Shown: piece after piece, positions 8,701 through 32,984 of the stretch | How the letters are laid out: each line of letters starts with the position of its first letter | Position numbering within the stretch: the stretch's first letter is position 1 | NCBI GenBank assembly: GCA_963788655.1 | Contig: CAWBHS010000067.1 | Coordinates: 1-42,044 of the forward strand | DNA from: an uncultured Verrucomicrobiae bacterium | GTDB lineage: Bacteria; Verrucomicrobiota; Verrucomicrobiia; Limisphaerales; JAFGQR01 | DNA length: 42,044 bases | Direction: 5' to 3' | Notes under the pieces: generated by a model | Database searches by the model: none | What the model was told of the DNA's origin: nothing | Seen by the model: only the letters and a program-made list of their open reading frames with translations | Position numbers and translations under genes: made by a program

Positions 8701-11673
8701 CGCCAACGTGGTCGCGGTGGAAATCCACCAGTGCAACGTCACCAGCACCGACGTGAGCTTCGATTTGGAATTGGTCGCCAACTCGCCCTTCGGTTATGTC
8801 CCGCCTGATCTGCTCAGCTTGATGCCGACCAATGGTTCGGTTTTGCATCTCGGTGAATCCATTCCATTGACAGCCAACACGGACGATCCAAACCGTCCGG
8901 GCGCTCAAGTGGAATTCTATTATCAAGCCACGAACGTATTGGGCACCGTGACCGAACCGCCCTTCGTGCTGGATTGGCTGGATGCTCCGGCCGGTCTGGG
9001 TTCTATCGCCGCCCAGGCCCGCACTGAGTTCACCCTGGGAACAGCTTTGACGAATGTCGTTTTCGTCGCCGATCGGCACACCTGGGTGAAGTTCTTCCCG
9101 GAGTTCACCTCCAGCAGCGGGTTGGTGTTGCAAACCGACGCAATCGTGACCGACGGCCGACTGCGCGTCTCGCAGTCCTACAGCTCGACCGGCGGAGCAT
9201 GGCTCGATCAGCGGCAGCCGCTGGCCGACGGCTTTGAGACCGTGTTCCAGTTTCAGATCAACGAGGTTTACGGTGACGGCGCCGACGGTTTTGCATTGGT
9301 CATCGAGGGCCATCCTTCACCCACGCTCGGCGGCGGCGGCGGCGGTCTCGGCTACGATGGCTTGACGAACAGCCTGGCCGTGGAGTTCGACACGTATCAG
9401 GCACCGGACAACGGGGATCCGAACAACTACCACATTGGCATCCACACGCGCGGCCCGTTGGCCAACGATCAAAGGGAGTCCGCCGCCATCGCCCGCACTT
9501 CCAGTGTGGCGGATTTCACCGATGGCAAAATCCACACCGTCAAAATCAGCTACGTGCCGGGAATTATGCGCGTCTTCCTCGACCGTTTCGATACGCCGGT
9601 GATTTCGACCGGGCTTAACTTGACCAATACTCTCTACCTGCCCAACGGCAGTGCCTGGGTGGGCTTCACCGCCAGTGGCGGTGGCTGGTATGAAAACCAT
9701 GACATCCTGCGGTGGGCATTTACCCGGCCACGTCGTCCTTCGGAAGTGCGGCTGGTGTTTCCCCGGGATGGAGCCACGTTCGTCGCCCCGGCCTCAATTC
9801 TATTGAGCGCGGCCGCTGACAGTCTGGATGGCGCGATCCGTCGGGTGGAACTGTTCGCCAACAGCACCCTGCTCGCCACCGTCACCAATGCCCCCTGGCT
9901 GTTCCGCTGGACCAACGTGCCGTCGGGACGATATCAATTGATGGCCGTCGCCATCGATGACCTCGACGAGAAGATATCTTCTGCTCCCGTCACGGTGACC
10001 GTCAATTCCCACCCCGTCGCCCAGTGTCATGACGTGACCGTGTCCGCGGAAGCGGGTTGTGTGGCGAACGCTTCCGTTGACGAAGGCTCCTACGATCCCG
10101 ACAGTGGCGACACGATTGTTCGTGTCCAGGCGCCCCCGGCCCTTATCCGCTCGGCACCAATCTGGTGATGCTCACCGTCACCGACAATTTCGGAGCCAGC
10201 AGCACTTGCAACGCGACCGTCGTCGTTGCGGACACGACCCCGCCGCAGATCACGCTACCGGGGGATCTTGTGGTGAGCACGGCCGAACGCACTTGCGCCA
10301 GCAATGTGGCCTTCAACGTTTCCGCCCACGACGATTGCGGGACCACGAGTGTGGACTGCCAGCCGCCCAGCGGCAGTTCCTTTCCCAAGGGCACGACGCT
10401 GGTGAACTGCACCGCCGTCGATGACGCCGGCAACCAAACCAGCAGTTCGTTCAATGTCACAGTGCTGGACAACGAGCAGCCGGAAATAAACTACCCGGAT
10501 AACTTCGTGGTTGATGCGGACGTCGGTCAGGGCGGGAAGAGCAACGTCACTTGGACGGTCACCGCCACGGACAATTGTGGTGTGGCCAAATTGGGGTGCC
10601 TACCACCCAGCGGCTCCAATTTGCCCGTCGGTGAGCACGAGATCGTTTGCACGGCAACGGACGCCAGCGGCAACTCAACGTCGTGCAGCTTCAGCATTCG
10701 CGTCAACGATCCGCCGGCCGTACAAATCCTCAAACCGGTTGACGGAACACTTTTTGTTCAACCGGCCAACCTTGCGATCAACGCCGAGGTTACCGACACC
10801 GACAGCAAAATTCGGGCGGTGGAAGTGTTCGCCGGCTCCAACCTCATCTTTTCGACTTCTATTGCACCTGAGCCCCAGGAACTGGCAACGCTTGCATCCG
10901 CGAACGTCGCGGCTTCCAGGGGGAGCGGAATGTTTCTACTGCCGTTGAACGCCATGGCCGACGTGTTGCCGATTGGTTCGGTCTGGTCCAACGCGCCGGC
11001 GGGCGAGCACGCGCTGATGGCCAGGGTGACCGATGACCACGGCGCCACCGGCACTTCCAGTGTGGTCAACGTAACCGTCCTGGCGCAGCCGCCCCTCGCC
11101 TACGCCCCGGTGACGATCGCTGATCTCGATCCCGCGTCCGGCTTGTTTCTGCAAACCATCCAAATCACCAATCCAACGCCCTACGCGTTCAAGGCACTGC
11201 GACTCTCAGTGCAACTGGATGCCGACAGCCTTGCCAGCGGCGTGGGCATTGGGAATGCGACGGGCACCAACAACGGCGTGCCTTACGTGGAGTGGAACTC
11301 GCCGCTGGCGGCCGGTCAAAGCCTTGACCTCGAGCTGGCTTACGACATCCCCGACCCGCAAACCATGCCCGACCCTGCGTTCACCGTCGAAGTAGTGCCC
11401 GCGGACCCGGCTTCCCCACCAACCGGCCCGGTGCTGATCGTGGACCATGTCGTGCAGTTGACCAACCGCGTGATCCGTGTTGGGTTCACCACCTTGAGCA
11501 ATCGAATCTACTACGTGCAATACAGCCGGAACCTGGTTGCGTGGAAGACCGTCCATCCGCCCATCATGGGCACCGGCGAAGACCTCCACTGGCTCGACCT
11601 CGGGCCGCCAGAAACCGAAACCCCGTCAGAAAGTGAGCCCAATCGGTTTTACCGGCTGCTGGTGTTGCCTTGA
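5793..11673 (+). CDS. Large exported protein: FG-GAP/VCBS repeats, galactose-binding-like domain, Ig-like domains, legume-lectin domain, HYR domains, C-terminal FYRL domain; frameshifts near 6600, 6965 and 10138
   Basis: More than ten D(F/L)NxDGxxDL...GxGDGTF repeats; lectin motifs GADGFA and SLAVEFDTY; HYR motif DTTPP..C.PPSGS.FP.G.T.V.CTA.D.AGN. ORFs 5643..6635, 6493..6996, 6872..10168 and 10165..11673 join seamlessly. AGGAAG precedes ATG 5793. Confidence 0.85.
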
Positions 11674-11780
11674 GCAATGGGAAGCGACCGCAGCACACGA
11701 TTGGCGAAAGCAATTACTGCATCCCCAACAACGTCTGCGGCAGCCACCTGCGACCCAATAATCCAAAAGCTCGTTGAAGT

Positions 11781-12983
11781 TTACTTTGGAGCAAGAGTCG
11801 GATACTCAGCAGCTTTCAGGCGATAAAAATACCGGCTTTTGCCTGCAGCCTCACGGTGACGGAATATCGCGATTCCGGTGCCGTTGGTGACTGAAAAGAT
11901 TGAAGCCCAATCCCAGAGGTTCGTCGATGATTCAACACTGTAGCTGGAAGAAGGCATCGCCGTTGATTCAATGCAGGGTCCTTCAAGCCCATCATAATCA
12001 CAAAGCCGGAGTGCCAAAGCGTCCAGCACGGTGGTCAGAGTGGTACCGTCTTGCCCAACCGCAACAAAGCGCCCTTCTCCGTAGGTAATACCTCGCAAAG
12101 GGCTATAGGCGATTCTCTTTGGAACGATCCGTCGCAACCAGTTTGTTGCGTCAGGAGATGTGAAAATGTTGCCATCAAAGTCGGTAGCAAACAGAACTCC
12201 ATTCTCAATTCGGAGCGACGACACATAGGCCGGAGATTCGCTGACGAATTGCCATGCGAGATTCTCATTGGCTGTCCAAATTCCGCCACCCCAAGATGCG
12301 CCTACATACACTCCGTTCGCAAACGCGACCTGGGTGAACAATGGGCCTTGCTGAAATGTCCAGATGACTCCGTTGGTTGAACTGAAGGTTTCTCCGTACT
12401 CCGTGACAAACACAATTTGTCTTCCACTTGAAGTAATGCTCGCAGCTACGGAATCGCCAAACTCATTTTGCGTAACGAACCAATCAATTGCATTCGACGA
12501 GACGGCGATGCCTTTCCTTTGTGACAATACCACATACATATCCTGAAAGTGCGTAATACCAACGATGCCCGATACGAGCCCAGAGTCATATTCTGACCAG
12601 ACACAATCCTCTGCCGAGACAGATATTTTTCCACCCAGTCCCCCGCCTACAAATAATCCGTTGGCAAAGATAAGACAGTATGGAGGGACAGGCACGCAAG
12701 CGCTCCGGTCCTGCCACGATGTTCCGTTGGAGGAAACAATTAGGGTACGAGGGGTGTCAAAGAATCCTCCCGTTGCAACCCAGGTTCCATTCCCAAATGC
12801 CACATCAGACAGCGGAGCCACAACGCCGGTATCATTGATGAACCAATCATCAAGAGCGTTCCCAAAGTCGTGCGTCATTCCATAGTCTCGTAACTCTCCG
12901 ACGCCTGTGATTAGGCAGAGCACGAGCAAAAAGATGCGTGACTGCGAAACTTTGGTTTTCTCTATTTCAGGCGGACGTTTCAC
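11781..12983 (-). CDS. Exported beta-propeller-like repeat protein with C-terminal FYRL domain
   Basis: N-terminal hydrophobic segment; repeats of V.(F/Y)GNG.FV..G..G.I..S.(D/N)...W; ends YSVESSTNL.DW...RYFYRL. Visibly lower GC than its neighbours. Confidence 0.85.
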   Translation of the reverse strand: MKRPPEIEKTKVSQSRIFLLVLCLITGVGELRDYGMTHDFGNALDDWFINDTGVVAPLSDVAFGNGTWVATGGFFDTPRTLIVSSNGTSWQDRSACVPVPPYCLIFANGLFVGGGLGGKISVSAEDCVWSEYDSGLVSGIVGITHFQDMYVVLSQRKGIAVSSNAIDWFVTQNEFGDSVAASITSSGRQIVFVTEYGETFSSTNGVIWTFQQGPLFTQVAFANGVYVGASWGGGIWTANENLAWQFVSESPAYVSSLRIENGVLFATDFDGNIFTSPDATNWLRRIVPKRIAYSPLRGITYGEGRFVAVGQDGTTLTTVLDALALRLCDYDGLEGPCIESTAMPSSSYSVESSTNLWDWASIFSVTNGTGIAIFRHREAAGKSRYFYRLKAAEYPTLAPK

Positions 12984-13214
12984 CGAAGTTCATCTAACAC
13001 GCTAATGCGTGTTCATCAAGGATGATCGCTACGCGTGGCGACCGAACCCGGCAACTGATCGATCACGACCGCGATCTAATTGCCGGGACATTTCGCGGTC
13101 AGGGTGCGTGCCCTGCATGCGCTGCCACAGAAGGATCAAGCACATCGACCATTGTCGATGCGCAGGAAAACTGTGGGAACACTTACGCGAGAAGCTCAAC
13201 GCAGTCTTCGTAGA

Positions 13215-13436
13215 GCGTCAACCGCACAAAGCGGTCGCGTTATTGCTCGAGCGGTTGAAACTCCACCTGCCCGAACAACCGCCGCCGCGCCTGAGCGCGG
13301 AACGCAAACTGACGACGTAAGTGCTCGGTCATTGGTAGTGAAGACCTTTGGCCCTCGGCCCCCCGGAAAACTGAGGAAATTCGCGGGTTGCCACGAAAAT
13401 CATCCGCCAGTACCGAGAGCAAGGCGAAGCTCGGGG
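13215..13436 (+). mobile_element. Probable 3' remnant of an IS1634-like element
   Basis: Peptide VALLLERLKLHLPEQPPPRLS* followed by GTAGTGAAGACCTTTG and GCGAAGCTCGGG resembles IS1634-type transposase C-termini and right ends. Recognised from memory, not by search. Confidence 0.4.
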
Positions 13437-13603
13437 GAAATCTCCAGGTTGGGGCGGCATCGAAGGCTAAAGCTTGCCGGTTGGCCCGGCGGCTGAGAAG
13501 TCACTTAATGGTGAGCCAAGCGGGTGATCGAAAATGGTTGGCGAGGCGCCAACCATTGCGTCCGGGGCGGGCGCGCTCCCGTTTCCTGCTGAATTGATGC
13601 GGG

Positions 13604-14686
13604 TTAGAAGCTGAAGGTCATGCCGGCGGTGATGGCGTAGAGCGTGTTCAAGTCGAGGGTGACTTCCCGGCCTTCGCCCTGGAACTGGAGCCGTTCCTGG
13701 TATTCAAAATCGCCGCCCACATAAGCGCCCCAATGGCGCGTGAAGTCGTATTGGAACCGGAATTGCGCATACGCGCCCGGCTTCCAGGACCGTCCGCTGA
13801 CGGTTCGGTCATGGTAATCGATGCTTGGAATGGCCGGACTGGTAAAGGTGATGCGCTCGCTGAATTGCAACCGGCTGTCCGCGTACATGGCCGCGTAGCC
13901 CGCGCTAAGATTTATCGTCGAACGCCGGGCCACCGGATACGACATCCACACGCCGAGCTTGAACGTGTGCAGGTTGTTTTCCAGTTTTCCGTTGAAGGTG
14001 CTCTGGCTGGGAGAACTGATCACGCCATGGACCGAAGGCTGGAGATTCAACAGCGGACCCGGTCCGGCGAATGTGCCCGCATACGGTGCTACGGGCGGGG
14101 CGGTGCCGCCGAGGCCGTAAGCGTCACCGGTATAAGTGGCGGTGCCGCCGGCGCTCGAGTTTTCATCCAGGGTGAGGTTGTTGTAACCGTAACCGATCTC
14201 GAAACCCAAGCGGGCTTCCCGCCGGTGAATGAAGAACCGGGCCAGTTCGGCGCCCACGATTATCTCCCCGCCCATGGCGGGATCGGAACTGTGATCGGTG
14301 AACAAGCCGGCCATGGGCAAGTCGGTCAAACGGCTGAAGTGCATCTGGCCGCCGGAGACTTGATTGGCGCGGTCGTAGCCCCAGTTCCACGTGCGGCCAC
14401 TGGCGGTGCCACCAACGTCGGGCAACACAAAGCCATCGTCATACACCCCGGGCGTGACGGTGGTGGGCAGACGGCTCACACTGGCCTTCGCGCCAAACAG
14501 GGCGCGCGCGCCGGCCCGCACAAACCAGCCATAGCCTTCGGAGTTCTCGAATTCCATGGCGGCCCGAACCGACGTAACCGTCAGCCCCAAAGCCAGGGCC
14601 GCCGCGCAGGTCCATGAATTTCGGAATCGTTGATTGGGGGAGTACAAATGCTTCATGATTTCTGGGTTCAGGAACGGCTGTCTCAT
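13604..14686 (-). CDS. Uncharacterised outer-membrane beta-barrel protein
   Basis: Signal peptide (AAALALGLTVTSVRA); amphipathic strands (WFVRAGARALF, RLGFEIGYGY, AYAQFRFQY, WGAYVGGDFEY); BAM-type end ITAGMTFSF*; ATGA overlap with the upstream Ig gene. Confidence 0.85.
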   Translation of the reverse strand: MRQPFLNPEIMKHLYSPNQRFRNSWTCAAALALGLTVTSVRAAMEFENSEGYGWFVRAGARALFGAKASVSRLPTTVTPGVYDDGFVLPDVGGTASGRTWNWGYDRANQVSGGQMHFSRLTDLPMAGLFTDHSSDPAMGGEIIVGAELARFFIHRREARLGFEIGYGYNNLTLDENSSAGGTATYTGDAYGLGGTAPPVAPYAGTFAGPGPLLNLQPSVHGVISSPSQSTFNGKLENNLHTFKLGVWMSYPVARRSTINLSAGYAAMYADSRLQFSERITFTSPAIPSIDYHDRTVSGRSWKPGAYAQFRFQYDFTRHWGAYVGGDFEYQERLQFQGEGREVTLDLNTLYAITAGMTFSF

Positions 14687-17600
14687 GGGGTTTCAATGAC
14701 CCGGTAGAGCCGCATCGTTGGCAACGGCGGCGCCGGAGTCTCCGGCGGCAACGTCTTGGGCGGTCCGGTGTCCACCCAACGAATGGTCGCGCCCGTGCCG
14801 TGGACGACTGGTTGCGCCGTGTTAAAACTCAGCTCGTTGCTCAGGTCATCCCACTGGTCCGCGTATTGAATGAAATAATCATGGTTGAGTTGAGTTGAGA
14901 ATTCCAACTGCCAGTGCCCATCCACATCATTCAAGCCCCGCACCGGCACCGGATTCCCGTATGCCGACGGCAGAATCAGGAACTGGTCGAGGCTGAGAAA
15001 ATAAATGGGTTCGGGCACCGTCAAGTGGTCCGCCACGTAGTATTCCATCGTCAATGGGATGCGCGCTCCCGGCGGCAGAGAGTCGATCTGCACATAATCC
15101 ACCGTCGTATCGTCCACCCCGTCGCGGTTCGTGTCCACGGAACCGATGCCTTGAGCGTTGTAGAGCCGGATCGGGTGGCCCAGTGAGTCCGTCCCCAAGC
15201 CGCGCACGCCGACCAGGAATTCATACAGAAACTCGGTACCCGGATTGGCCAGCAGGAAATAATCGGTCACCAAACCGGACTGCGTGTTGGTGTCGATCAC
15301 CCCGGGTAGCCCGATGAACGCCGGCATCACCCGGGCGTTCAGGAGCAGCGATGGTTGCTGGAGGCCACTGGCCGTGATGGGAAGTGGCGTGTCCGCAAAC
15401 GCGAATCCGCCGAACATCGGGTCCTGTCCGGGCATGACTTGAAATTGGAGCCAGCCAATCCCGGTGTTGGTCGCCGGGAACGTGCTGCCGGTGGTCAACT
15501 GAATGGTGACACCGATCACCGCGTTGGTGAACACATTGGTGACGGTGACGTCGGCATTGGTGGAACTGACGGTCAGGTTGGTCCGCACCACGGAATCGTT
15601 GGTCGTGGTCACCGTGGCCGGGAAATTGGGCACAAACATCGGGCTGGTCAGCACGTTCGAGTCGTAGCGCATTGAAAACGTCACCCCGTTCTCGACGCCG
15701 TTGCCGGTCAGCACAATCTCGACGGACACTTGGTTCACTGCTTGCGTCAGGAACTGGCCCGTCAGCAGCGTGCGCGGGACGTCTGTCACCACGGTCAGGT
15801 TTGCCGACGAACTCATGACGCTACCCTCCGCGCTCCGGACCAGCACCGAGTAAGGGCCGCTTTGCGCGAAGCTCAGGTCGTCCAACTCGAGCGTACGGTT
15901 CACTTCGCCCGGCAGCGGCGCTCCCTGGAAGTACCACTGGTAAATGATCGGTTGGCTGCCGGCCGCGGTCACGTCGAAGCGGAAGTTTTCGTGGAGGGCC
16001 GCTTGGCCGCCGACCGGTTGGAGCACTATGGCCGGATCATCGACCTGCAACCCCGCGGCGGCGCTGGTGCGGCTGCCGTTGGGATTGGTCACGCGCACCG
16101 AATAGCTACCGCTTTGCGCAGCGGTCAGATTGGTCAACATCAGGATCGGAGCCGCCTGATTCGTCAACGGCGCGCCGTTGAACAACCATTGGTACGTCAG
16201 CGGCGACGTTCCCGCGGCCGTCACGGTGAAGGTGAAGTTAGTGCCGGCCGAGACCCGGCCACCTGTGGGTTGGCTGAGAATGGCCGGATCATCCACAGTC
16301 AGCACCGCGTTATCACTGCGCAGACTGCCCGCCGCGGTGGTGACCACCACGTAATACGTACCGCTCTGGGCGGCCATGACGTTGGTCAATGGCAGGGAAT
16401 TGCTCGACAGCGAGGTGGTGGATTCGACCAGCGGCGCACCGTTGAAAAACCATTGGTAAGTAAACGGTGGATTGCCGCCGGCCACGACGGTGAAGGTGAA
16501 GTTGGTGCCGGCTTCGATTTCGCCGCCGCGCGGTTGGGTGCGAATCACCGGTTCGAAGACCGCCAGGCGGACCGTGTCACTCCAGCGGGTACCCGCACCG
16601 TTGCTTGCCGCCACCGCGTAGGTGCCGCTGTTGTCGGTGGTCACGCTGGTCAACGACAGGACGTTGCTGGTCTGGCCCGTCAACGGCGCGCCCTGGAAAT
16701 ACCATTGATAGGTCAGGGGCGGCGTCCCGCGGGCCTCGACGGACAGAGAAAAATCGTCGCCGCCGGCCACCCAGCCGCCTTGCGGTTGCGCGACAATCGC
16801 GAGGTCATAAACGGTCAGCGTGGCGGCAGCGCTCCGAACAACGCCAAATCCATTCCGCACGTCCGCGGCGTATTGGCCGGACTGGGCGGTGGTTACGTTG
16901 GTCAATGACAAAACGTTGTTGGTCTTCCCCGCGAGCGCCGCGTCGTTGAAATACCATTGGTAGGTCAGCGGTGGGCTGCCGACGGCCCCTACGGTCAAGG
17001 TGAAACTGTCACCGGCATCCACCGTGCCGCCCACCGGCGCCGCCCGGATGATCGGATCGTGAACTGTCAGCGCCGTGTTCAAGCTGGCGACGCTTCCCCA
17101 TTGGTTGGTGACGCGGACCGAATACAAACCGCTGTTGGCACCGGTGACGCCGGTCAGCACCAACGTGTCGGCGGTGGCGTTCGCGATCTCGGCGCCGTTG
17201 AAGTACCACTGGTAGCGCAGCGTCGGGGTGCCGGCGGCTTCGACGGCAAAGGTGCAGTCTTCGTTCCAATCGATGTCGCCGCCCAGCGGTTGAGTCAGGA
17301 TCGCCAGTTCATACACGGTCAACGAGGCCGTCGCGCTGCGGACGGTGCCCCATTCGTCGTAAACATCGACAAAATACGATCCGCTTTGGGCAACCGTGAC
17401 ATTGGTCAGCAACAAGGTGCCGTTGGTTTTTCCCGCCAGGGCCGCGCGGTTGAAGTACCATTGGTACGTCAGCGGGGCCGAACCTGCCGCCTCGACTTCG
17501 AAGGTGAAATCCCCCCCGGCGTCCACCACGCCGCCTTCCGGTTGAGTCACAATCAAGGGATCTTCCACCGTCAGGTTTGCCGAACTGCTGGTCGCCATTC

Positions 17601-18279
17601 CCATGGCGTTGCTCACGGTGACATAATAGTTGCCGGCGTTGGTCGCGGAAAGCGTGGCCACAACCAGCGTATTGCTCGTTTGGCCGGTCAATGGTTCGCC
17701 ATTGAAATACCACTGGTACGACAGCGGTTCCGTGCCGGCGGCTTCGACGGCAAAGGTGAAGTCTCCTTCCGCGGCCGCGGTGCCGCCTTGCGGTGGGGCG
17801 ACCATCACCGGGTCACTGACCACGAGGGTCGCCGGGGCACTGGTCACGCTGCCTCCGGCGTTGCTGACCACCACCCAGTAAGCGCCGCTTTGGCTGCTGG
17901 TGACGTTGGTCAGCCAAAGCAGGACATCGGTTTGGCCCGGCAACGCGATGACGTTCGTATTGCCTGCGGGCAGGGCGGCTTGAAAATACCATTGGTAGCT
18001 GAAGGGACGGGTGCCACCGGGCAACACGGCCAAGCCGAAGTCTTCACCGAATTGGCTCGTGCCGCCCTGGGGACCGACAAGGATGGCGGGATCGCCGGCG
18101 GCCGGCGCGGTCAACGCCGAAATCAAAACGGCCCCCAGCCCAAGTGCCAACGCCCGGCCGAACCGGGAGCGCCACTTGGCCAAAGGTTCACTGAGCCTTG
18201 CCGGCCAAGGTCCGCTTGCTCGGGCCAATGAGGTTAGCCTTGCAGGAATATCGCCACGCTCTGTTGCCTCGGTTTTCAC
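14683..18279 (-). CDS. Surface protein with nine tandem Ig-like repeats, a cohesin-like domain and a C-terminal YR(V) domain (start uncertain; the ORF extends to 18420)
   Basis: Nine P.I..QP.GG...F.V.A.G..PL.YQW(Y/F)F.G...L.L..VT...SG.Y.V.V.N repeats; signal-like ALALGLGAVLISALTAPAA; VSVEIVL.G.G.ENGVTFSMRYD segment. Confidence 0.9.
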   Translation of the reverse strand: MKTEATERGDIPARLTSLARASGPWPARLSEPLAKWRSRFGRALALGLGAVLISALTAPAAGDPAILVGPQGGTSQFGEDFGLAVLPGGTRPFSYQWYFQAALPAGNTNVIALPGQTDVLLWLTNVTSSQSGAYWVVVSNAGGSVTSAPATLVVSDPVMVAPPQGGTAAAEGDFTFAVEAAGTEPLSYQWYFNGEPLTGQTSNTLVVATLSATNAGNYYVTVSNAMGMATSSSANLTVEDPLIVTQPEGGVVDAGGDFTFEVEAAGSAPLTYQWYFNRAALAGKTNGTLLLTNVTVAQSGSYFVDVYDEWGTVRSATASLTVYELAILTQPLGGDIDWNEDCTFAVEAAGTPTLRYQWYFNGAEIANATADTLVLTGVTGANSGLYSVRVTNQWGSVASLNTALTVHDPIIRAAPVGGTVDAGDSFTLTVGAVGSPPLTYQWYFNDAALAGKTNNVLSLTNVTTAQSGQYAADVRNGFGVVRSAAATLTVYDLAIVAQPQGGWVAGGDDFSLSVEARGTPPLTYQWYFQGAPLTGQTSNVLSLTSVTTDNSGTYAVAASNGAGTRWSDTVRLAVFEPVIRTQPRGGEIEAGTNFTFTVVAGGNPPFTYQWFFNGAPLVESTTSLSSNSLPLTNVMAAQSGTYYVVVTTAAGSLRSDNAVLTVDDPAILSQPTGGRVSAGTNFTFTVTAAGTSPLTYQWLFNGAPLTNQAAPILMLTNLTAAQSGSYSVRVTNPNGSRTSAAAGLQVDDPAIVLQPVGGQAALHENFRFDVTAAGSQPIIYQWYFQGAPLPGEVNRTLELDDLSFAQSGPYSVLVRSAEGSVMSSSANLTVVTDVPRTLLTGQFLTQAVNQVSVEIVLTGNGVENGVTFSMRYDSNVLTSPMFVPNFPATVTTTNDSVVRTNLTVSSTNADVTVTNVFTNAVIGVTIQLTTGSTFPATNTGIGWLQFQVMPGQDPMFGGFAFADTPLPITASGLQQPSLLLNARVMPAFIGLPGVIDTNTQSGLVTDYFLLANPGTEFLYEFLVGVRGLGTDSLGHPIRLYNAQGIGSVDTNRDGVDDTTVDYVQIDSLPPGARIPLTMEYYVADHLTVPEPIYFLSLDQFLILPSAYGNPVPVRGLNDVDGHWQLEFSTQLNHDYFIQYADQWDDLSNELSFNTAQPVVHGTGATIRWVDTGPPKTLPPETPAPPLPTMRLYRVIETP

Positions 18280-18682
18280 TGGCGCGCAGCATATTTTGCC
18301 TCGATCCGAACACAAGGAAAAAAGCTGAAAGGAAATTGGCGCGATACTTTGCTTGGTGGTTTCGCTGCGCTTAATGGCCAATGGGCAAGGAGCAATTACC
18401 AGGGAAGACCCAAGTCCCAAGCACCAATCCGGGATTGAGTATTCGGGTTACGATAAGGAACTTGCGCGTGCGCCCGGTGTTTGTGAATTGGGGCCGGTTC
18501 GTGGAAATGAGGACGCCACTCTGGAAGTCGGGGGGCTCAATCTGGATTTTGTCCCAACCCGGTGGGATTTGGGCGGCAGCAAGACAAGCAAACATTATCC
18601 GCGCTCACGAAAATCCGCACTGTCCTAAATAGGTTCCAATGCGTATAGTAATGGCATCACTGGTGTGGCAGGAAACCGTTAT

Positions 18683-21600
18683 ATGCTCAGCAAACCGATC
18701 AAATTATTGGTGCTCGTCCCAATCCTTCTGGGATTAGCCGGCCAATGGTCGGTGGCGTGGGCCCAGCGGCTTGACGTGTGCGGACCGGAACAGACGTGGA
18801 AGTATTACGAGCCCACCGCCAACATTCTGGACGGTACCGGTTGGGCGGCTCCCGGCTACAACGATTCCGCCTGGCCGGTTGGGGCCGGTACTTTCGCGTG
18901 GGAAACCACTGACTCGACCCTCGCCTTCCTGCAAAACAATGCGCCCGTCAATACTACGCTGGAAGCGCCATCCGGACGGACGGATTATTTCCGAACCACG
19001 TTCCACTGGGAGGGGCCGATTGCGGGCGTGGTGCTCCTGCTCTCGAACCTGGTCGATGATGGCGCGATCATTTATTTGAACGGCGTGGAGCAACAACGCC
19101 TGCGTCTGCCCGCCGACGTTCCCGATGTCTGGAACCTTTTCGCCACGGGCAATCCCCCCGGAGGGGATGCCACCGCCTGGGAGATGGTGACGTTGGGTTC
19201 GTCCAACTTGGTGACCGGTGACAATCTCCTGGCCGTATCCGTGCATCAGAGCAGCGACATCAGTTCGGACGTGGTGTTTGCCATGCAGGTCACGGGCATC
19301 CGTCCGTTTGCGCCGATCCTGCTGGAGGCGACCCAGCCCACCAATGCCGTGGTGGGCCAGGCTCAGGCCCACACGCTGGCGGTCGCGGCCGACGCGTTTC
19401 CCGAACCTGAGCTATCAATGGTTCTTCCAGCCGGAAGGCGGCGGCAGTTTCGGCGCCATCTCCAGCGCCACCAATGCGGCCTACACGATCAGCGACATGC
19501 AATCAGGCAACGCGGGGCAATTACTATTGCCAGGTGCAGAATTCCGTCGGCATTACCTCCAGCCGAACCAACACCATCACATACCTGCCAGACGTAACTC
19601 CCCCGGCGCTGATTTCGGCCATCCGGCAACCCAACATCACCAATCTCATCGTGACATTCGACGAACCCATGGCGGCCAGCGCCCTGGACACTTACAATTA
19701 CCTCATCTGCACGGACGACCAGTTCCTGGATTGCCTGAGCGTGCTACCGACGTCGAGCGATGGCTTCTACCTGCGCTTTGTGGATGGTTCCGATGGCACC
19801 CAGGTGCTGCTGGCGAGCGAGATGCCGTTGGAGGTGAACCGGCTCTATCGCTTGTTCGTCCTGGGGGGTAGCGACCGGTTGGGTAACAGCATTTCCGGCA
19901 CGCTGGTCACCAATATTGTCGTGCCGAAAATTGCCGCCTTCCGCCAGGGCGTTAATGGTTACCTGGGCACGGCGGACACCCATCTGCGCCAGGACCGGCC
20001 CGATATTTCGTTTCCGGTCAATGTGCAGGTTCTGGTCGATAGCCTGAATCCGGTCAGTCACGGCCTGTTGCGATTTGAGAACATCATTGGCGGGGGGACC
20101 GGCCAGATTCCATTCGGGGCTGCCATTAGCTCGGCAACCCTGTCGTTGCGCACGGTCAATGCCACCCGCGACGGCGAATTAGTCGAGTTCCATCGCATGT
20201 TGCAACCCTGGCGGGACACCGACACCTGGAACACTCCGTGGGGCAACGGGCTCAAAGCCGATGACGTGATCGCCGCTGCCGCGGTCGCCGCCGAAATCAA
20301 CCCGGCCACCAACAGCATGACCCTCGACTTCGACGTCACTTCGTCCGTGCAAGCCTGGGTGAATGGCCAGTTGAACTACGGCTGGTTTCTGACCAACACG
20401 ATGGATGACGGCTATCAATTTGCATCATCAGAAAGCGCCACGATCGATTACCGCCCGTTGCTGACCGTCGATTATGAATTCGGTCAACCGGCGCCGGTGG
20501 CGCTGGTGGTCTTGCCGCCCACCAACCAGATCGTCGTGGACCAGGGGCAACCCTTCGCCATGGTGTACGGCGTGGCGGGGCCGAATCTCCAACTCCAGTG
20601 GTTCAAGGACAATGGAGGGTTGCCGGGCGAAACCAATGCGGCCCTCAGCCGAAGCGCGGCGACGCTGGCCGACACCGGCGATTATTTTCTGCGCGTGACC
20701 AATGATTATCCCAGCGCCACCAACAGCCCGGTCATCCAGGTAACCGTGGTGGCGGACACCACGCCCCCGGCGGTGGTTTCGGCAGTCGCTACCGGCACGA
20801 CCAATCTCACCCGGTTGACGCTGCAGTTCTCCGAACCGCTGGCGGCGGCGGGCCCGGGGAATGTGGAGCATTATCAACTGTCACCGAACATCCCGATTAC
20901 CGGCGTCACCGTCCTCAACAGCACTACCGTGGAATTGGAGCTGACCGCTCCGTTCGGACAACGGTATTACCTCACCCTCGATGGCGCCCTTCAGGATGTG
21001 CATGGCAATTCCGTCTCGCCCAATTATCTGGAAGTGACCACAGAGTTGGTGCTGGTGGACTGGCAGGACGACTGGAAACTCGACGCCTCAGACACGGACC
21101 TGATGGCGACGTTTGCGGATCCCGGTTTTGATGATTCTGCCTGGAGTTCCGGGCCGGGACTGCTGGGCACGGAGGCCGATCCACTGCCGGGAGGCTTGAC
21201 CATCCGAACGCCGGTGGCCGCTACCGGTTACACGTCCTATTACCGCAAACAGGTGAGCTGGCCCTACGCGACGGCCACACTGGATCCCGCGGTGGAAATT
21301 GCGGTGGTTCATGCGGTGGACGACGGGGTGGTCTTTCACTTCAACGGTGCCGAAGCGTTTCGTTTCAAAATGCCGACGGGAACCGTTACGCACGCGACGT
21401 TCGCTGACACCGCCGGTTTCGATACCGATGCGGTTGCGGCCACCAATACGCTGCCCCCCGACGTGCTGGCGTTCGGCACCACGACCATCGCGGCCGACCT
21501 GCACGCCATCAACACCACCAGCTCGGACAATGTATTCGGCGCCCGCCTGCTGGCGGTGCTGCCACCCAAGACCCCCGTTCGTTTTATTTCTGGTCCCACG

Positions 21601-24015
21601 ACCAATGTCCTCGTGGTGGCGCAAGGCCAGCCCTTCGGTATCGAGTTCGAAGTGGCGGGCTTCAGCCGGAATACCAGTGGTTTCACGATGGCGGAGTCAT
21701 TCCGGGCGCCACGACGACGGCGTACCAGGTAGCGCTCTCGACGTTGGCCGATGCCGGTGATTATTACCTGGCGGCCACCAACAGCCTTGGCCGCAGCAAC
21801 AGCCCGGTGATCACCGTGATGATCATCCCGGACACGAATGCGCCGCAACTGCTGACCGCCGTGCGCGAACCGGATCTGACCAATGTGGTCGTCACCTTTT
21901 CCGAAGCCGTCAATCCCGCCCAGGCCACCAACGCGGCCAATTACATGATCACCAACGCCGGCGGACCGGACGTGCCGGTTGAATCGGTGGTCCTGGCGCA
22001 CGGTAATTGGAAAGCGACCCTGCAAACAGCCTCCGAAATTGGTGCCGGCGCCACGTTGACGATCCAAAACGTCACCGACCTGGCGGGGAATGATTTGGCG
22101 CCGAACACCGCGTTGATCGCGACGCCCACCGGTTTCCAGGAAGGTTTTGGGGGATACTTCGGATCGGTGGACACTTACTTGCGGGAGTACGATCCCGACA
22201 CCACCTTCGACACACGCGGCACCGTGCTGGTGGACGCCGAAGATCCGGAAGGCGACCCTCACCACAATCAAGGTTTGTTGCGGTTCAACAACCTCTTTGG
22301 AACTGGCCCCGGACAGATTCCCTTCGGCGCCACCATTCATTCGGCCCACTTGCGTCTCCGCACCGAGAATGTCAGCCCGGGCAACATCCGTTTGCACCGC
22401 ATGCTCATGGCCTGGGACGGATCGAGCACGTGGAACTCCCTGACCGACGGCGTCACGCCGGATGACACCGAAGCCGTGGCCGCCGCGGACACGGCGATTG
22501 TCGCGCCCGAAGTCGAAGGGGAACGGCGCGAAGTGGACGTAACGGCGGCCGTCAGCTCCTGGGCCGGCGGAACTTTGAATTACGGCTGGGTGTTGATGAA
22601 TGACAGCGAGGACGGCTACCAATTCTATTCGACTGAGGCGACGGAAGTGACGTGGCGACCGGCTTTGCTCGTCGATTGGAGCCCGCCCACCAATTGCCTC
22701 AACGTCGCCATCCTCGAAGAACCGGCGGCGTGGCAGGAGGTGACCGAAGGTGAAGCGGTGACGTTTTCGGCCCTGGCGTATGGCACCGATCCCGTGTTTC
22801 AATGGCAGAAGAAAGGAGTGAATATTCCCGGTGCCGATCACCGCACTTACGTCATTCCCGCGACCTCCTTGACCGACGCCGGCACGTACCGTTGCGTGGT
22901 TACCAATGCCTGCCCCAGCACCGTCGTTAGCCAGGACGCGGTGTTGCGCGTCAATCCGGACACCGTCGGGCCGGCGCTGTTATCCGCCCTCGCCCGCAGC
23001 CACGCGGCCAGTCCGGATCTGGATCAAATCGAGTTGGTCTTTGATGAACCGCTGGAAATCACAGGTGCCCAGACGCCCGGCAACTACACCGTCACTGGAC
23101 CGGGTGACGGCTTGGTGCCGGTAATGGGAGCGACGTTGGCGGATGCCCAAACCGTGCAGTTGACGATGGGAACGCCTTTGACGTTTGGCGCCAATTACTC
23201 GGTCGAGGTTGGCCCGGGCGTCACGGATCCGGCCGCGGCACGCAATCCGGTGGATCCGAATTACACCAATATTTTGCAGCAGATTGTCCTGGTGGATTAC
23301 ACCGACGTTTGGGCTTACGACGAAAACCGGGATGCTGCGGACAACTATGACGCCACCGTGCCGGCCTGGTACACGGATGCGTTTGACGACTCGGCGTGGG
23401 CAAACGGTCCCGGCCTGTTGGGATTGGAGGATGACCTGCCCGTTTTAAACCTGCTTCCGGCGCCGTTGAATACTGGTTTGACGCAGACCAATCACACCAT
23501 TTATTTCCGCCGCACGTTTGCGAGCCCGCTGGGTCCGTTGCCCGCGGGAGCGGCTTTGGTGGTGAATCATGTCATCGACGACGGCGTGCGTTGTTTCCTG
23601 AATGGCACCGAAGCGTTTCGTTTCAAAATGCCGGAGGGATTGGTCAGCTTTGCTACGGAAGCCAGCGCGGGCGGGGAAGCCGGTACTGAGTTCGACCAAC
23701 CTGTACCCGGCCAACGTCCAAACGAACAATCTGCTGGCTTGCGACCTGCATACGTACGGCACGGACAGTTCGGACGCGATCTTTGGTTGGGAAGTGCTGG
23801 CCCAATACCCGGCGCCCAACCAGGGGCCGTTGCCCCGGCTTGCAATCAGCGGTCCGGTTGCTGGGCAGCTCACGCTCACTTGGGATCCGGAGGATGGCGT
23901 TTTGCAGGAGGCGTCCAACCCGGCGGGTCCGTGGACCGACGTGACTGGCGCCACCAATCCCATGACGATCAATCTGGACGTCGCCGACAGGAAGTTCTAT
24001 CGGCTAACTCGCTGA
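18683..24015 (+). CDS. Large exported protein: three galactose-binding-like domains, Ig-like domains, two DNRLRE-like domains, C-terminal FYRL domain; frameshifts near 19410, 19515, 21665 and 23690
   Basis: Signal peptide MLSKPIKLLVLV...AWA; DT(H/Y)LR...GLLRF....G.G.GQIPFGA.I.SA.L.L...DVT..V..W..G.LNYGW occurs twice; DDSAW..G.G...DDG...NG.E occurs three times. ORFs 18665, 19218, 19474, 21744 and 23602 join. Confidence 0.85.
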
Positions 24016-24119
24016 GAACCCGTATCTCAATCTTCAGGCGGTACCAGCGCAGCATCGCTGGAGTAACGGCAACCAGGCAAATACCACGACGAAGAAAGCG
24101 CGTGCGTTGATACTTTCAC

Positions 24120-24561: not shown

Positions 24562-24577
24562 AATTCCTCCGCCCTCC

Positions 24578-25054: not shown

Positions 25055-25063
25055 CGCACAAAC

Positions 25064-25160: not shown

Positions 25161-25381
25161 TTCATTGAAACTATTCTTCGCTGGCTGACGCTTACGGCAG
25201 CTTAACGACACGGTAAATCCTCTGCAACTGACCCGGCAGAATCACATCGTAGAGACAAGTGGTGCCCTCCGTGCCCTGGAGCGGCAAACCAAGTGGAGAC
25301 CAAGAGTCTGTTGTCAGTGCAGAGCGATACTCGACCTGGTAATGCCTTGAGATGCAACGGAATTTTGGACCATTTTCTCTC

Positions 25382-26236
25382 TTAATTTTTGCTTAATCTT
25401 TGGTGTTCAAATTGGTTGGGAGTTCGGTAGCCCAGCGCCGAGTGTTTGCGTTGATTATTGTAGTAGGCTTCGATGTATTCGAAGAGTTCGGTTTGCGCGT
25501 CTTGCGCGGTCTCAAAACAGCCGCCTTGCAGCATTTCTTTCTTGAGCGTTCCGATGAAGGATTCGGTCCAGGCGTTGTCGTAGGGATTGGCCCGGGCCGA
25601 CATGCTCTGGCGCAAACCCGCGCGGGCCAGCACGCGGCGAAAGGCGGTGCTGCCATATTGACTGCCCCGATCACTGTGGAAGATGGTTTGGTCGATTCCC
25701 GGACGCGAAGCCAACGCTTGGTGGAGCGCCGCCAGGACCAGTTCGGCGCGCAGGTGATCAGCCAGGCTCCAGCCGACGATGCGACGGGAATACAGATCGA
25801 TTACGACCGCCAGGTAAAGCCAGCCGGTCTGGGTGGGGATGAAGGTGATGTCGCCAGCCCAAACCTGATTGGGGCGATCGGGCCGCGGTTGGCCTGTCAC
25901 GAGGTTGGGCGAAGGCTGATTGGCTTTGCCGTCGCTGGTTTTGGGCACGAAGTTTTTCGGTTGGATGGCCCGTAAACCCCGTTGTTTCATGAGGCGGCGA
26001 ACGCGACTGGGAGCGCACACCACTTGCTGATCCCGCAGCTCCTGGCCGATGCGACGATAACCGTAGCGGCGGCGGTGCGCTTTGAAAACGGCTTCGATCC
26101 GATCGCTCAATTGCTGGTCGGCAGCCTGCGTGGCCGTGGCGGTGGCCGCGTGATAAAAGCTGCTGCGCGAACAGCCCAGGGTGTGACAAACCTGCCGCAC
26201 ACTACTGCCGGTTTTTTGTCGCAGAGTCAGGATCAT
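25382..26236 (-). CDS. IS3 transposase OrfB (DDE)
   Basis: YGYRRI, W.GDITFI, HSDRGSQY, DNAW.ESF...LKKE, YYN..R.HSALGY.TP. Confidence 0.97.
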   Translation of the reverse strand: MILTLRQKTGSSVRQVCHTLGCSRSSFYHAATATATQAADQQLSDRIEAVFKAHRRRYGYRRIGQELRDQQVVCAPSRVRRLMKQRGLRAIQPKNFVPKTSDGKANQPSPNLVTGQPRPDRPNQVWAGDITFIPTQTGWLYLAVVIDLYSRRIVGWSLADHLRAELVLAALHQALASRPGIDQTIFHSDRGSQYGSTAFRRVLARAGLRQSMSARANPYDNAWTESFIGTLKKEMLQGGCFETAQDAQTELFEYIEAYYNNQRKHSALGYRTPNQFEHQRLSKN

Positions 26237-26550
26237 TGCGCGTCGTTGAGTTGGGGTTTGGTTCCGAGAATAACGGCAGCCTTTTTTAAAATGTCATTCT
26301 CAATTCTGAGCTGGGCGATCTCCCGGCGGAGGCGGCGCCGCTCGTCCGCTGCGGGCTCCTCGCCTGCGGCTCGGAGCCCTGCGCTCCCGAGCGGCGCCGC
26401 CGGGGACGCTTGCCGGACCCAGCGGTAAAGGAGGTTGGCGCCAAAGCCAAAATCTTTGGCAACTTCCGGCACGGGTTTCCCCAAACTTACCAGTTCGACA
26501 GCTTGCGCCTTAAACTCTGGACTATATCTTTTTCGAGGCATTTCACTCAT
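26233..26550 (-). CDS. IS3 transposase OrfA (HTH) with a -1 slippery site
   Basis: RKRYSPEFK.QAV...LYRW...ENDILKKA. A-AAA-AAG at 26281..26287, and the -1 frame is open into OrfB. Confidence 0.93.
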   Translation of the reverse strand: MSEMPRKRYSPEFKAQAVELVSLGKPVPEVAKDFGFGANLLYRWVRQASPAAPLGSAGLRAAGEEPAADERRRLRREIAQLRIENDILKKAAVILGTKPQLNDAQ

Positions 26551-26668
26551 GATGTTCCTTATTCTCTTATGGAGTGGTCCAGGAATTTCGCACACTTCAG
26601 AAACTCCAAAAAAGTGTTAGCATTGTCGTTTTCATAGTCTTTCGTTTGGTGGTTTCCTCGTAGCTTTT

Positions 26669-27497: not shown

Positions 27498-27502
27498 CTC
27501 AC

Positions 27503-27612: not shown

Positions 27613-27727
27613 GATCGTGTTCCGCAGCAAGTCAACTCCTGTTTCGCATAGCGAGCCGGGCGTCCCAGCAATGGGTTCCGTATTTGCCATAAGCTCTGGG
27701 CCTTTGCCTCCAATCGGGTTTGGAAGT

Positions 27728-27888
27728 GAGACTCTGTCGAGCCCAAACTTCCCCGCATCGCTTCCGCCTACCGGCAGCGTCCATGCGGGAAGCTTTTGGC
27801 GTTCGAAGGTCAAAGACTTCCCTCGGCGCGGTATTTCGTGAACGGACGCACCCAGGGAAATCAGGGCTCGACGGAGTCTCGCCCTACC
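27728..27888. repeat. Inverted REP-like pair
   Basis: GAGACTCTGTCGAGCCC (27728..27744) and GGGCTCGACGGAGTCTC(GCCCTACC) (27864..27888) are reverse-complementary at 16 of 17 positions. Confidence 0.65.
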
Positions 27889-30389: not shown

Positions 30390-30485
30390 AATTTCAAGCG
30401 CATTGTTGGACAACACTCCGATTTGACAAAGAAAAATTGCATAGGCAGGTCCATTCCCCTGGAGTAAGGTCCGTTTGACGAAACT

Positions 30486-31289
30486 ATGAGTGCCAGCGAT
30501 TCAAACACCACCATGGCGGTATTCCTCGACCTCGAGAATATCGCGCTCGGAGCCATCAATGCCCATTTTGCCCGGTTCGACATCAAGAAGATCCTCGAAC
30601 GGCTGTTGCTCAAAGGGCACATCGTGGTCAAGAAGGCCTACTGCGATTTTGACCGGTTCAAAGCGTTCAAACGCGATCTGCACGAAACGGCCTTTGAACT
30701 CATCGAGATTCCGCACGTGCGCCAGTCCGGCAAGAACTCCGCCGACATTCGCATGGTGGTGGACGCCCTGGATCTCTGTTACACGAAGAGCCACGTGGAC
30801 ACGTTCGTGATCATCAGTGGCGACTCGGATTTTTCGCCGCTGGTCAGCAAACTCCGGGAAAACGCCAAAACCGTGATTGGCGTTGGCGTGAAGAGTTCGA
30901 CGTCCGACTTATTCATGAACAATTGCGACGAGTTCCTGTATTACGATGACTTGGTGCGGGTGAAGCCTTCCAAAGCGCGCCAACGCAGCGCCGCGACGGC
31001 CTCAACCGCCAAAGCTGGCGCCGAGGACAATCAGGAATTGGCGCCGGCCAAAGGGCTCGACTTGGTCGTGGCAACCTTTGAAGCCATCAGTGAAGAACGC
31101 GACGAAGACGGCCGCATCTGGGGATCCATGATCAAACAAGCCCTCAAACGGCGGGACCCGGGCTTCAACGAACGGGCTTTTGGTTTTCGGTCCTTCAACG
31201 ATCTGTTGCTGGAGGCTCAAAAACGCAAGTTGATCAAATTGGAGCCCGACGAAAAATCCGGTGGGTATTTGGTGCGGCCGGCCGAGTGA
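30486..31289 (+). CDS. NYN domain (LabA/DUF88) protein with C-terminal OST-HTH/LOTUS domain
   Basis: AVFLDLEN, GKNSADIRMVVDA, ISGDSDFSPLV.KLRE; C-terminal P.F.ER.FGF.SF.DLL. Confidence 0.95.
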   Translation: MSASDSNTTMAVFLDLENIALGAINAHFARFDIKKILERLLLKGHIVVKKAYCDFDRFKAFKRDLHETAFELIEIPHVRQSGKNSADIRMVVDALDLCYTKSHVDTFVIISGDSDFSPLVSKLRENAKTVIGVGVKSSTSDLFMNNCDEFLYYDDLVRVKPSKARQRSAATASTAKAGAEDNQELAPAKGLDLVVATFEAISEERDEDGRIWGSMIKQALKRRDPGFNERAFGFRSFNDLLLEAQKRKLIKLEPDEKSGGYLVRPAE

Positions 31290-31369
31290 GTTTTCCTCTT
31301 GCCTCTGCCGCTACCCAACCTTTCAGGCATCAACATCTGGCATCCGGCATCAATCTTCCCTCTCCTCCT

Positions 31370-32984
31370 TTAAGGCCTGCTCAATCGATAAAACCTCCTC
31401 CCGTCCGATTTCGGCACCACGACTACGTTTGATAAGTCCGATACTTCGGGGGTATCGGCATTGGTCGTCCATGTGGCGTCCAGTGACAGATTGGTTGAGG
31501 ATTCGAGATAAAAATCAGTGGCCAGCACGGACCACGACAGGCGTACGCTGTCGGCTTGTGGGGTTATGCTCAACGGTGGGGCAGTTGAAGTATCAAGTTT
31601 GGCCAGGAAGACTTCCGGCGCCGGCGGCCCCGAGGTGCTTAACGTCATTTCGTCGAAAGTCAAAGTGTTTTGGAACGATCCCGAGATGTAGCAATTGCCA
31701 ATTGCGTCAGCCCTTAAATGATAAAGCATCAAGTTTTGCGGCACCTGCCGGGACCAAAGCGGAATGCCTTCTCGAGCATACTTCGCATAGAGCACGTTGC
31801 CCGCTTCGAGTTCGGCCGCCAGATAACAATTCCCGGCCGCATCCATCGCCACGGCTGAGCGCGAGGCGGAACGCGGTTGACTGGTTTGCCTGGCCCAAGC
31901 CACGTTGCCCGCGGCATCGTACTTCGCAACAAAGAAATCGTAGTTGTCAAACGAGCCGGGATCCAACGTGTTGCTCAGCGTGAGGCTGCCAAAGTTGGCA
32001 CGTCCATAAAACATACCATTTACCAAGCAGCTTCCTTCGCAATCAACCGCCAAACGATTAGCGTAGTCGTCGCCGGTTCCCCCACCACAACGGGTCCAAA
32101 GCAATTGTCCGTGAGGGTTGTACTTGGTTAGAAAAACATCGGTGCCACCGCCGGCATCGAACTGAAGGTCATTCAGTATCAAGGCCGGTCCGTACAGTTC
32201 CGGCCACATAAACGTTGCCGGCCGGATCAATGGCGATATCCGCTCCTCCATGGGCGTTACCAGCGTCGATGGTATTGATCCAAACCGGGCGCCCCTGGTC
32301 GTCATACTTTGCTACGATGCTGCTGCCCGTCACATTGGTTTCGGCCGAGTTTGCCGTAGTTTGAAAGACTCCGGTCCAGTAACAATTACCCGCATCATCT
32401 ACCGCCAAACCGCTGGAATAGATCCAGTCACTCCAGAAAATAAGGTTGGCCCAAAGCGGTGCCCCGCTGCTGTCGTATTTTGCCAGCACAACGCTCGTGG
32501 CACCTGGATTGGTCAGCGTCAGGCCTCCGAAAACGGCGGTCGGTGCGTCAAAATTGCAGAGCACATACACATTGTTTGCAGCGTCCAAACCGAGTCCCAT
32601 GGGTGAAATGCCGTAGAAATATTGAGTTTCACCATCCTGGGTGACCCACACGAGTTCGCCGGTGCGGTCGTATTTGGCCACAAACAATCCTGGTTTGGTC
32701 AGGGAAGTATTGCCGAATTGGGCGTTCCCACTGATGCTGCCCGCTTGGTAACAATTGCCGGCCGCGTCCACCGCCAAGGCGAAGCCGAAATCCGGATAAC
32801 CATCCGGAGCCCCCGCTTGCCTGGCCCACCGGAATGAGGGAGCGACCTCGGTGGCAATTATCGAACCGGCGAGCCAAACCGTTGCCAATACCGCCCCAAT
32901 CCATTCTCGCCCAAGATGCGAGTAACGTCTTAGTGATTGGGTTGAATTGCCAGGATTGGAGTTGCCGAGAATTGTTGTGCTCAT
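31370..32984 (-). CDS. SBBP-repeat beta-propeller exported protein with C-terminal FYRL domain; frameshift near 32195
   Basis: Repeats of AVD.AGN.Y..G...F.AKYD..G...W; signal-like N-terminus; ends LSW...F.LESSTNL...W...RRFYRLSRP. Confidence 0.87.

Follow-up and report, generated by a model that had tools for sequence, protein, structure and literature searches.

Why do six otherwise different proteins encoded on one contig of an uncultured Verrucomicrobiae bacterium end in nearly the same way? The window considered here is the whole contig (C67; 42,044 nucleotides) of an 8.96-Mb draft genome (G000) that comprises 115 contigs. The original prediction for this DNA was that six exported proteins share a C-terminal sorting signal, to which we refer as the tail. 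We scanned the window in six frames for the motif [FYLIW]YR[LVI] within 15 residues of a stop codon, which recovered all six tail stops where they had been predicted, at 11673(+), 11781(-), 14683(-), 24015(+), 25192(-) and 31370(-). One further match was an unrelated chance hit in a 51-residue frame. The scan found no tail in the cytoplasmic-type proteins of the window (trigger factor, LigD, an NYN protein and transposases), which had likewise been predicted. The six tails, two of which belong to a subtype marked by a W-x-D-x-G-P-P-E/K-T segment, lie as follows.

11416..11673, + strand: tail 1, W-x-D-x-G-P-P-E/K-T subtype, where a large FG-GAP / lectin / HYR protein ends
11781..12038, - strand: tail 2, ordinary type, with an unusual 11-residue extension after FYRL
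14683..14955, - strand: tail 3, W-x-D-x-G-P-P-K-T subtype, translationally coupled to a downstream barrel gene
23758..24015, + strand: tail 4, ordinary type, in a frame of 137 amino acids (aa) that is out of register with a large open reading frame (ORF) at 21744-24110
25192..25371, - strand: tail 5, ordinary type, a 59-aa remnant without an N-terminus that abuts an IS3-family transposase ORF
31370..31627, - strand: tail 6, ordinary type

The six tails served as seed for a hidden Markov model (HMM). Iterated searches with it against every one of the genome's 101,079 stop-to-stop frames of 50 aa or longer returned 12, 46, 133, 158 and then 167 domain hits, the last in 166 frames. All six window tails were found by the first HMM, and the final list shows five of them, without the 24015 tail. 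The recovery of this family indicates that the six tails are real and far beyond chance. The C-terminal position that the original prediction had assigned to the tail held for the great majority of hits in the genome: 154 of the 167 hits lie within 20 residues of a stop (131 within 5 residues and 23 at 6-20), with one hit at 21-60 residues and 12 further away. A terminal proline is present in 84 of the 154 terminal tails, compared with 538 of 5199 control frames, and in 117/154 the chain runs on for 4-6 residues after YR. Upstream extension of 135 tails revealed a conserved unit of approximately 80 residues, which reads v-L-s-W, Y-x-V-E-Y-S-x-x-L, W-t-p-L, f-t-D and R-F-Y-R-V, and within which R, Y, R and W vary little or not at all across very divergent copies. 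A TSP3-like calcium-binding motif occurs within 110 residues upstream of 25/130 tails, compared with 4/3000 random windows, and Pfam TSP3_bac matches are present in 4 of 25 aligned tail regions.

The tail is also common in the order to which this genome belongs, where a 26-row alignment found matches in 30 of 31 genomes. With the best 150 candidates scored per genome, the 30 positive genomes contain from 18 to at least 144 matches each; the sole tail-negative genome is 2.6 Mb in size and 94% complete. Of 151 genomes sampled evenly across the phylum, 60 encode the tail (E <= 1e-5), and in the ESM Atlas the closest clusters have neither names nor Pfam families and come mostly from Verrucomicrobiota. 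Together with the spread within the order, these results uphold the suggestion that the tail is lineage-specific. A profile search of 1.84 billion representatives returned 59,153 proteins at E <= 1e-3, a count that overstates the family, as canonical FN3 arrays are matched too (e.g., P0002, with 23 Pfam fn3 stretches). We analyzed the best 150 of these 59,153 public representatives for tandem copies. The genome-trained HMM matched 143 of them, and most of the 143 feature tandem arrays of 2-10 copies. The last copy lies within 10 residues of the C-terminus in 100/143, and the 40 'internal' cases among the 143 include canonical FN3 arrays, judging from how they end and from the fn3 match in P0002.

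Two further features of the family were observed. Giant tail proteins of 2300-3000 aa (P0009, P0019, P0035, P0050, P0069, P0086 and P0117) have in common an N-terminal signal-anchor with the pattern M-R-x-x-x-R-T-W-F-L-x-S-L-L-x-F ... F-W-x-L-G. Internal tail-like domains that are N-terminal to other domains occur on contigs C49, C78, C26 and C63 of G000; two of them precede the pattern F-x-M-G-S-P ... E-V-T-Q-x-E-Y, which we take to be typical of formylglycine-generating-enzyme-like domains, and two others precede K-L-D-T-D-P-P-E-V-W-R-A.

What kind of domain is the tail? No Pfam or NCBIfam entry covers it in the six window proteins, in 25-26 aligned tails or in the tandem-tail proteins. A full-text literature search, judged from its results rather than from the contents of papers, returned nothing on the domain. 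Searching the profile against PDB sequences gave weak matches to FN3con, a designed FN3 domain (4u3h, E 1.3e-3), and to an Fn3-like protein of Clostridium thermocellum (3mpc, E 0.033). In the FN3con alignment, the tail segments tvtlsW, YrveY and RFYRV fall on VTLSW, YRVEY and YEFRV, which we take to be the B, C and F strands. The alignment stops at residue 84 of 100, 16 residues before the chain end, and the missing part presumably corresponds to the FG loop and G strand. An AlphaFold2 model of the tail from a 25-row alignment features six strands, with a mean predicted local distance difference test (pLDDT) score of 67.6 and core values of 67-88. The best VIA-align rows for this model are FN3 domains of cytokine receptors (Z 5.7-4.0), which indicates no more than a common sandwich.

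Like FN3 (PF00041), the tail has the same strand order and key residues (B-strand W, C-strand Y-x-V-x-Y and F-strand Y/F-R-V), and its profile cross-hits true FN3 arrays. However, no tail reaches the Pfam fn3 threshold, the best value being E 0.14 in 1 of 25 aligned tails. The search detected fn3 in the tails of neither the six window proteins nor the tandem-tail proteins P0001, P0017, P0092 and P0059, and the sole fn3 hit in P0006 lies in a separate N-terminal FN3 domain. In contrast to FN3, the tail ends 2-6 residues after the F strand. This short end is seen also within arrays, where a short Pro-rich linker is followed by the A strand of the next copy, which argues that the tail has no G strand. 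The tail differs from FN3 also in an invariant extra W in C', in the R-x-x-R around its F strand and in its strong preference for the C-terminus. Taken together, we read the tail as an autonomous, FN3-derived beta-sandwich of approximately 80 residues and six strands, without a G strand and with an F strand of the invariant form R-[FY]-[YF]-R-[VLI].

One subtype of the tail, represented by window tails 11673 and 14683 and marked by the insert W-x-D-x-G-P-P-K-T between strands E and F, pointed to a possible partner. In the window, this partner is encoded directly downstream of the 14683 tail gene.

13604..14686, - strand: outer-membrane barrel gene, 360 aa, with a signal peptide and a predicted 8-stranded OmpW/OmpA/NspA-like barrel, ending in ...MTFSF

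The ATG of the barrel gene overlaps the TGA of the 14683 tail gene (ATGA). The window barrel protein has no Pfam hit, and its 46 public homologues are all labelled 'hypothetical'; two of these carry PF13505 / PF13568, which we take to be outer-membrane beta-barrel families. The AlphaFold2 model of the barrel (pLDDT 90) consists of an N-terminal helix at residues 19-39 followed by long strands only. VIA matched it to OmpW (Z 16.2, 173 residues aligned), NspA (Z 15.8) and OmpA (Z 15.7, root-mean-square deviation 1.8), and among the Foldseek matches listed, all were outer-membrane barrels. The signal peptide, the modelled fold and the C-terminal Phe lead us to assign the product of 13604-14686 as a predicted 8-stranded OmpA/OmpW/NspA-like barrel. 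Small barrels of this kind (OmpW 2f1t, NspA 1p4t, OmpA 3nb3, OprF 4rlc and PagL 2erv) matched at Z 16.2-13.8 with 131-173 residues aligned. The partner differs from them in that its mature protein, at approximately 315 residues, is roughly twice their size and has very long strands, and in that its gene is tied in this order to a tail-bearing upstream gene.

This genome contains three loci of the barrel family, and 3/3 lie directly downstream of an insert-bearing tail gene. Among 24 barrel hits in 18 related genomes, 23 have a same-strand upstream tail gene (20 by HMM and 3 by eye), and the insert is present in 22 of these 23 upstream tails, the tail at L036 being ordinary. The gaps from tail to barrel, taken by eye from the signal-peptide starts, are mostly approximately 10-30 nucleotides (nt). 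At the level of the order, 19 of the 31 genomes have the barrel and 18 have the subtype. The two sets coincide apart from one genome with only a weak barrel hit, so that presence and absence agree in 30/31. The pair is adjacent also in three genomes of other families. Ig, propeller, DUF11, Calx-beta and cadherin-like domains are found among the passengers of the barrel-paired genes. What is new here is the subtype-barrel gene pair together with its matching distribution, and the F-strand alignment, the terminal-proline and spacing statistics and the signal-peptide check in better assemblies (below) are also added by this analysis.

Prediction of a complex between barrel residues 44-360 (39 rows) and a 100-residue subtype tail (23 rows) scored 0.00 in two runs, which is evidence neither way. 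Open frames of 563 and 592 aa in one family raised the question of a barrel-passenger fusion, which we rejected: the additional length is upstream read-through, and signal peptides are present at the true starts. Barrel-paired tails are preceded by a second conserved region of approximately 100 residues (window 10800-11400 and 15000-15600; L027, about 3400-3800). It has the pattern G-L-F-x-Q-x-x-x-I-x-N-P-T-P ... N-A-T-G-T-N-x-G-V-P-Y ... P-L-A-A-G and no Pfam match.

What do the tails follow, and are these proteins exported? Passenger domains across the tail proteins include Ig, FG-GAP, HYR, lectin, CBM96, SBBP, DUF11, cadherin-like and Calx-beta. Within the window, the passengers differ from one another, as had been claimed.

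5643..11415, + strand: passenger of tail 1, with FG-GAP repeats, legume-lectin, Big_7 and HYR
12039..12983, - strand: passenger of tail 2, with a signal peptide and a PF25852-type propeller
14956..18420, - strand: passenger of tail 3, with a signal peptide, nine Ig_3 / I-set repeats and approximately 400 residues without a Pfam match
18665..23757, + strand: probable passenger of tail 4, with a signal peptide, CBM96, Big_5 and Ig domains
31628..32984, - strand: passenger of tail 6, with a signal peptide and SBBP beta-propeller repeats

The tail-1 gene is split over four overlapping frames (5643-6635, 6493-6996, 6872-10168 and 10165-11673), which suggests three frameshifts or assembly errors, and the tail-6 gene over two (32169-32984 and 31370-32305). 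For tail 4, the pieces lie in four frames (18665-19597, 19474-21732, 21744-about 23650 and 23602-24015), and their order and common domain types suggest that they are probably one gene. The three large genes (5643-11673, 18665-24015 and 31370-32984), each in 2-4 overlapping frames, reflect either assembly errors or frameshift pseudogenes. Read across the breaks, signal-like N-termini are present in five of the six tail-bearing genes: RRLLRPWASLVSVLAAGWACRA near residue 85 of the first tail-1 frame (5643), IFLLVLCLITGVG in the 11781 protein, RALALGLGAVLISALTAPAAG in the 14683 protein, KLLVLVPILLGLAGQWSVAWA at 18665, where the tail-4 gene pieces start, and WIGAVLATVWLAGSIIA at 32984 in the tail-6 gene. 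The claim that all six proteins have signal-like N-terminal peptides thus holds for these five and lapses for the 25192 remnant, which has no N-terminus. Because frames in this genome are broken, the 5' ends of 20 tail genes were taken from better assemblies. By a strict rule, 13/20 of these look like signal peptides, compared with 355/1500 control frames under that rule. By eye, 17 of the same 20 begin with a classical signal or signal-anchor, and the other three N-termini were not captured.

Homologues of the tail-2 passenger end in the same kind of tail in 49 of 92 cases, as determined by HMM. One homologue, P0284, is without the tail; a Gly-rich stretch is followed at its end by a Cys, a hydrophobic helix and R-R-R, which from its sequence would be a different kind of C-terminal anchor on the same propeller passenger family.

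Does the tail belong to a known sorting, anchoring or secretion system? The C-terminal domains (CTDs) of Bacteroidota's type IX secretion system, or T9SS (type A, TIGR04183 / PF18962; type B, TIGR04131) are also small C-terminal beta-sandwiches found on many unrelated Sec-exported proteins of one lineage. As far as we are aware, they resemble the tail in number as well, at tens to hundreds per genome. In contrast to them, the tail is tandem and sometimes internal. No tail matched TIGR04183 / PF18962, and the single TIGR04183 row obtained (17.9 bits versus a cut-off of 23) covers residues 660-699, within the Ig repeats of the 14683 protein. SprA_N (PF14349) was found in 0/5 genomes, but also in 0/14 control genomes. 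A different comparison is offered by SLH, LysM, GW and choline-binding repeats and by cohesin-dockerin, in which a terminal module, single or repeated, docks diverse exoproteins non-covalently. By this analogy, repeated anchoring modules or dockerins are most likely the nearest counterparts of the tail in how it works, although its fold and sequence are unrelated to theirs, its host is diderm and its sole candidate receptor is the subtype barrel. The tail is positioned like the T9SS CTDs, yet it is a member neither of them nor of the anchoring repeats.

Sorting by PEP-CTERM / exosortase was rejected, as the tails end in a beta strand followed by x3-5-Pro and have no hydrophobic helix. By a crude regular expression, no tail-bearing ORF of G000 has a PEP-CTERM-like end. 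Exosortase homologues are present in the tail-rich genomes G000, G001, G004 and G005 and not in the tail-less G009, and secretins are present in 5/5 genomes tested. G000 itself has eight secretin (PF00263) and two exosortase (PF09721) matches, and the crude expression found only two PEP-CTERM-like ORF ends in it. We also rejected the identity of the barrel as an autotransporter or two-partner secretion translocator, as its best structural matches are 8-stranded and not 12- or 16-stranded. The barrel has no Pfam hit to POTRA or Omp85, and the AIDA-I transport unit ranks 42 among its Foldseek matches, with a template modelling (TM) score of 0.14. Having eight strands, the partner barrel would be too small for a translocon.

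Based on these results, we propose, with somewhat less than even confidence, that the tail is a cell-proximal docking module that acts non-covalently at the outer membrane and for which the barrel serves as the dock of one subtype. Tail-bearing proteins would be exported by Sec, after which the tail would hold large adhesin-like and enzyme-like passengers on the outer membrane, non-covalently, via an outer-membrane component. For the W-x-D-x-G-P-P-K-T subtype, this component would be the 8-stranded OmpW/OmpA-like barrel encoded 0-30 nt downstream, whereas the receptor of ordinary tails could be a common outer-membrane protein or a surface glycan. Tandem tail copies would raise avidity. Docking, with the binding, surface location and direction of anchoring that we infer for it, is the best-supported reading because of the terminal position of the tail, its tandem copies and the exported adhesin-like passengers. 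Tandem arrays are typical of binding modules, not of translocation signals. OmpA, OmpX and NspA-type barrels act as surface platforms, and the dedicated barrel neighbor of the subtype fits anchoring. Of the original prediction of an export or anchoring signal, it is thus the anchoring half that fits the subtype barrel. The export half is the weaker one because the barrel is 8-stranded, the tail is a folded FN3-like domain rather than a tag of the signal-peptide kind and occurs in tandem and internally, and no machinery common to the ordinary tails was found. A broader proposal, which we regard as rather doubtful, is that Verrucomicrobiota possess a general surface-display system in which a G-strand-less FN3 tail on more than 100 exported proteins per genome docks, possibly through edge-strand complementation, on outer-membrane receptors, with the barrel pair being the first matched tag-receptor pair.

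Several observations weigh against docking as proposed here. Internal or N-terminal positions account for 13 of the 167 genome hits (approximately 8%), which suggests that the tail domain is able to work away from the C-terminus. Confidence in the tail model is middling, as its mean pLDDT indicates, and Foldseek found no PDB entry that resembles the model at E <= 0.001. The tail frames of this genome showed no excess of signal peptides by a strict rule (29/112 versus 355/1500 control frames) or by a laxer rule (46/112 versus 708/1500), a result that we attribute to the broken frames and the crude control set, and only 17 of 52 M-started public representatives pass a signal-peptide rule. The barrel pairing also has exceptions. 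The window tail at 11673 is a fourth subtype member in the genome and has no barrel gene 3' of it, the next gene being convergent. In the order, a place-matching tally found an adjoining barrel hit for 25/32 subtype tails and none for 7/32, including 11673. In other families of the phylum, barrel homologues without an upstream tail gene also exist (6/6 such loci fetched). Finally, neither neighborhood analysis nor clustering of downstream ORFs found a partner common to the approximately 150 ordinary tails. The neighborhood, taken as two crude genes on each side of 131 tail genes, comprises mainly other surface-protein gene pieces, and the immediate downstream ORFs gave no common partner upon clustering. 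A WD40/kinase family near tails was considered as machinery (adjacent in 5/11; p 2e-4, uncorrected) and is not regarded as such.

Three other explanations were weighed against docking. The tail could be an ordinary FN3-like structural end-cap or spacer without any targeting role, its C-terminal position having arisen through recombinational assembly of modular genes. Such a role is consistent with the cross-hits of the tail profile to canonical FN3 arrays (P0002), with tandem and internal copies, with the failure to find a general partner and with those homologues of one passenger family that have no tail. However, the C-terminal bias is extreme, with the last copy flush even in arrays (100/143), the terminal proline is enriched more than five-fold, and R, Y, R and W hardly vary, if at all, in very divergent copies. 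The subtype-barrel pair and its matching distribution furthermore argue for a specific partner, and we consider an end-cap unlikely. Alternatively, the tail could be an outer-membrane translocation signal that, like a T9SS CTD, is recognized by a putative translocon and is maybe cleaved later. The flush C-terminal position, fixed spacing and terminal proline would be expected of such a signal, as would a cargo of more than 100 proteins per genome whose passengers are unrelated and, in other genomes, signal peptides; the tail also resembles a T9SS CTD in size and beta-sandwich nature. This explanation is difficult to reconcile with the tandem arrays and internal copies, and no member matches TIGR04183. 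Moreover, no recurring neighbor or machinery was found, and the only conserved partner is 8-stranded, too narrow for folded proteins, which together make a translocation signal improbable.

The remaining explanation is that the tail resembles a carbohydrate-binding module (CBM) and binds environmental or own-surface polysaccharide, in which case it would serve substrate capture or adhesion and not sorting. The tail profile weakly matches chitosan-binding modules from a glucanase/chitosanase of Paenibacillus (2rv9, 4zxe and 4zy9; E 2e-4 to 2e-3), and CBM56 modules appear in the VIA rows at Z 4.4. Aromatic and Arg residues are the most conserved ones, tandem copies are typical of such modules, and the passengers include CBM96, lectin and heparinase-type neighbors. 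Nevertheless, every match is weak, CBMs are not normally limited to the extreme C-terminus, and the conserved partner of the subtype is a protein, and we find it hard to credit that polysaccharide binding is what the tail is for.

Mobile elements were also seen in the window. An IS3-family element at 25382-26595, with a transposase ORF of the rve / HTH_21 kind (25382-26236) and, upstream of it, a small ORF (26233-26595), appears to have truncated a tail-bearing gene, leaving tail 5; no terminal inverted repeats were found for this IS3-type element beside tail 5. A mobile-element-like block at 35695-41209 contains ORFs at 35695-37173 (phage-integrase-like), 38888-39715 (AAA_22 ATPase) and 40352-41209 (rve integrase core), and the guanine-cytosine skew is raised in this block. 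Between these regions, the ORF at 33338-35314 (-), which encodes 658 aa, has no Pfam match at E <= 0.001.

Soil, water and guts are rich in Verrucomicrobiota, which encode many giant exported proteins. We know of no T9SS- or sortase-like display route described in this phylum. One uncatalogued end-domain on approximately 150 proteins in this genome provides a strong handle on the question of how such proteins reach the surface. Even if the tail has no targeting role, it represents a large family worth modelling, as annotation now leaves these protein ends blank. The tail would give a ready listing of the surface proteome of the group and is a candidate surface-display tag, and the barrel-paired subtype offers one concrete protein pair that is open to binding tests.

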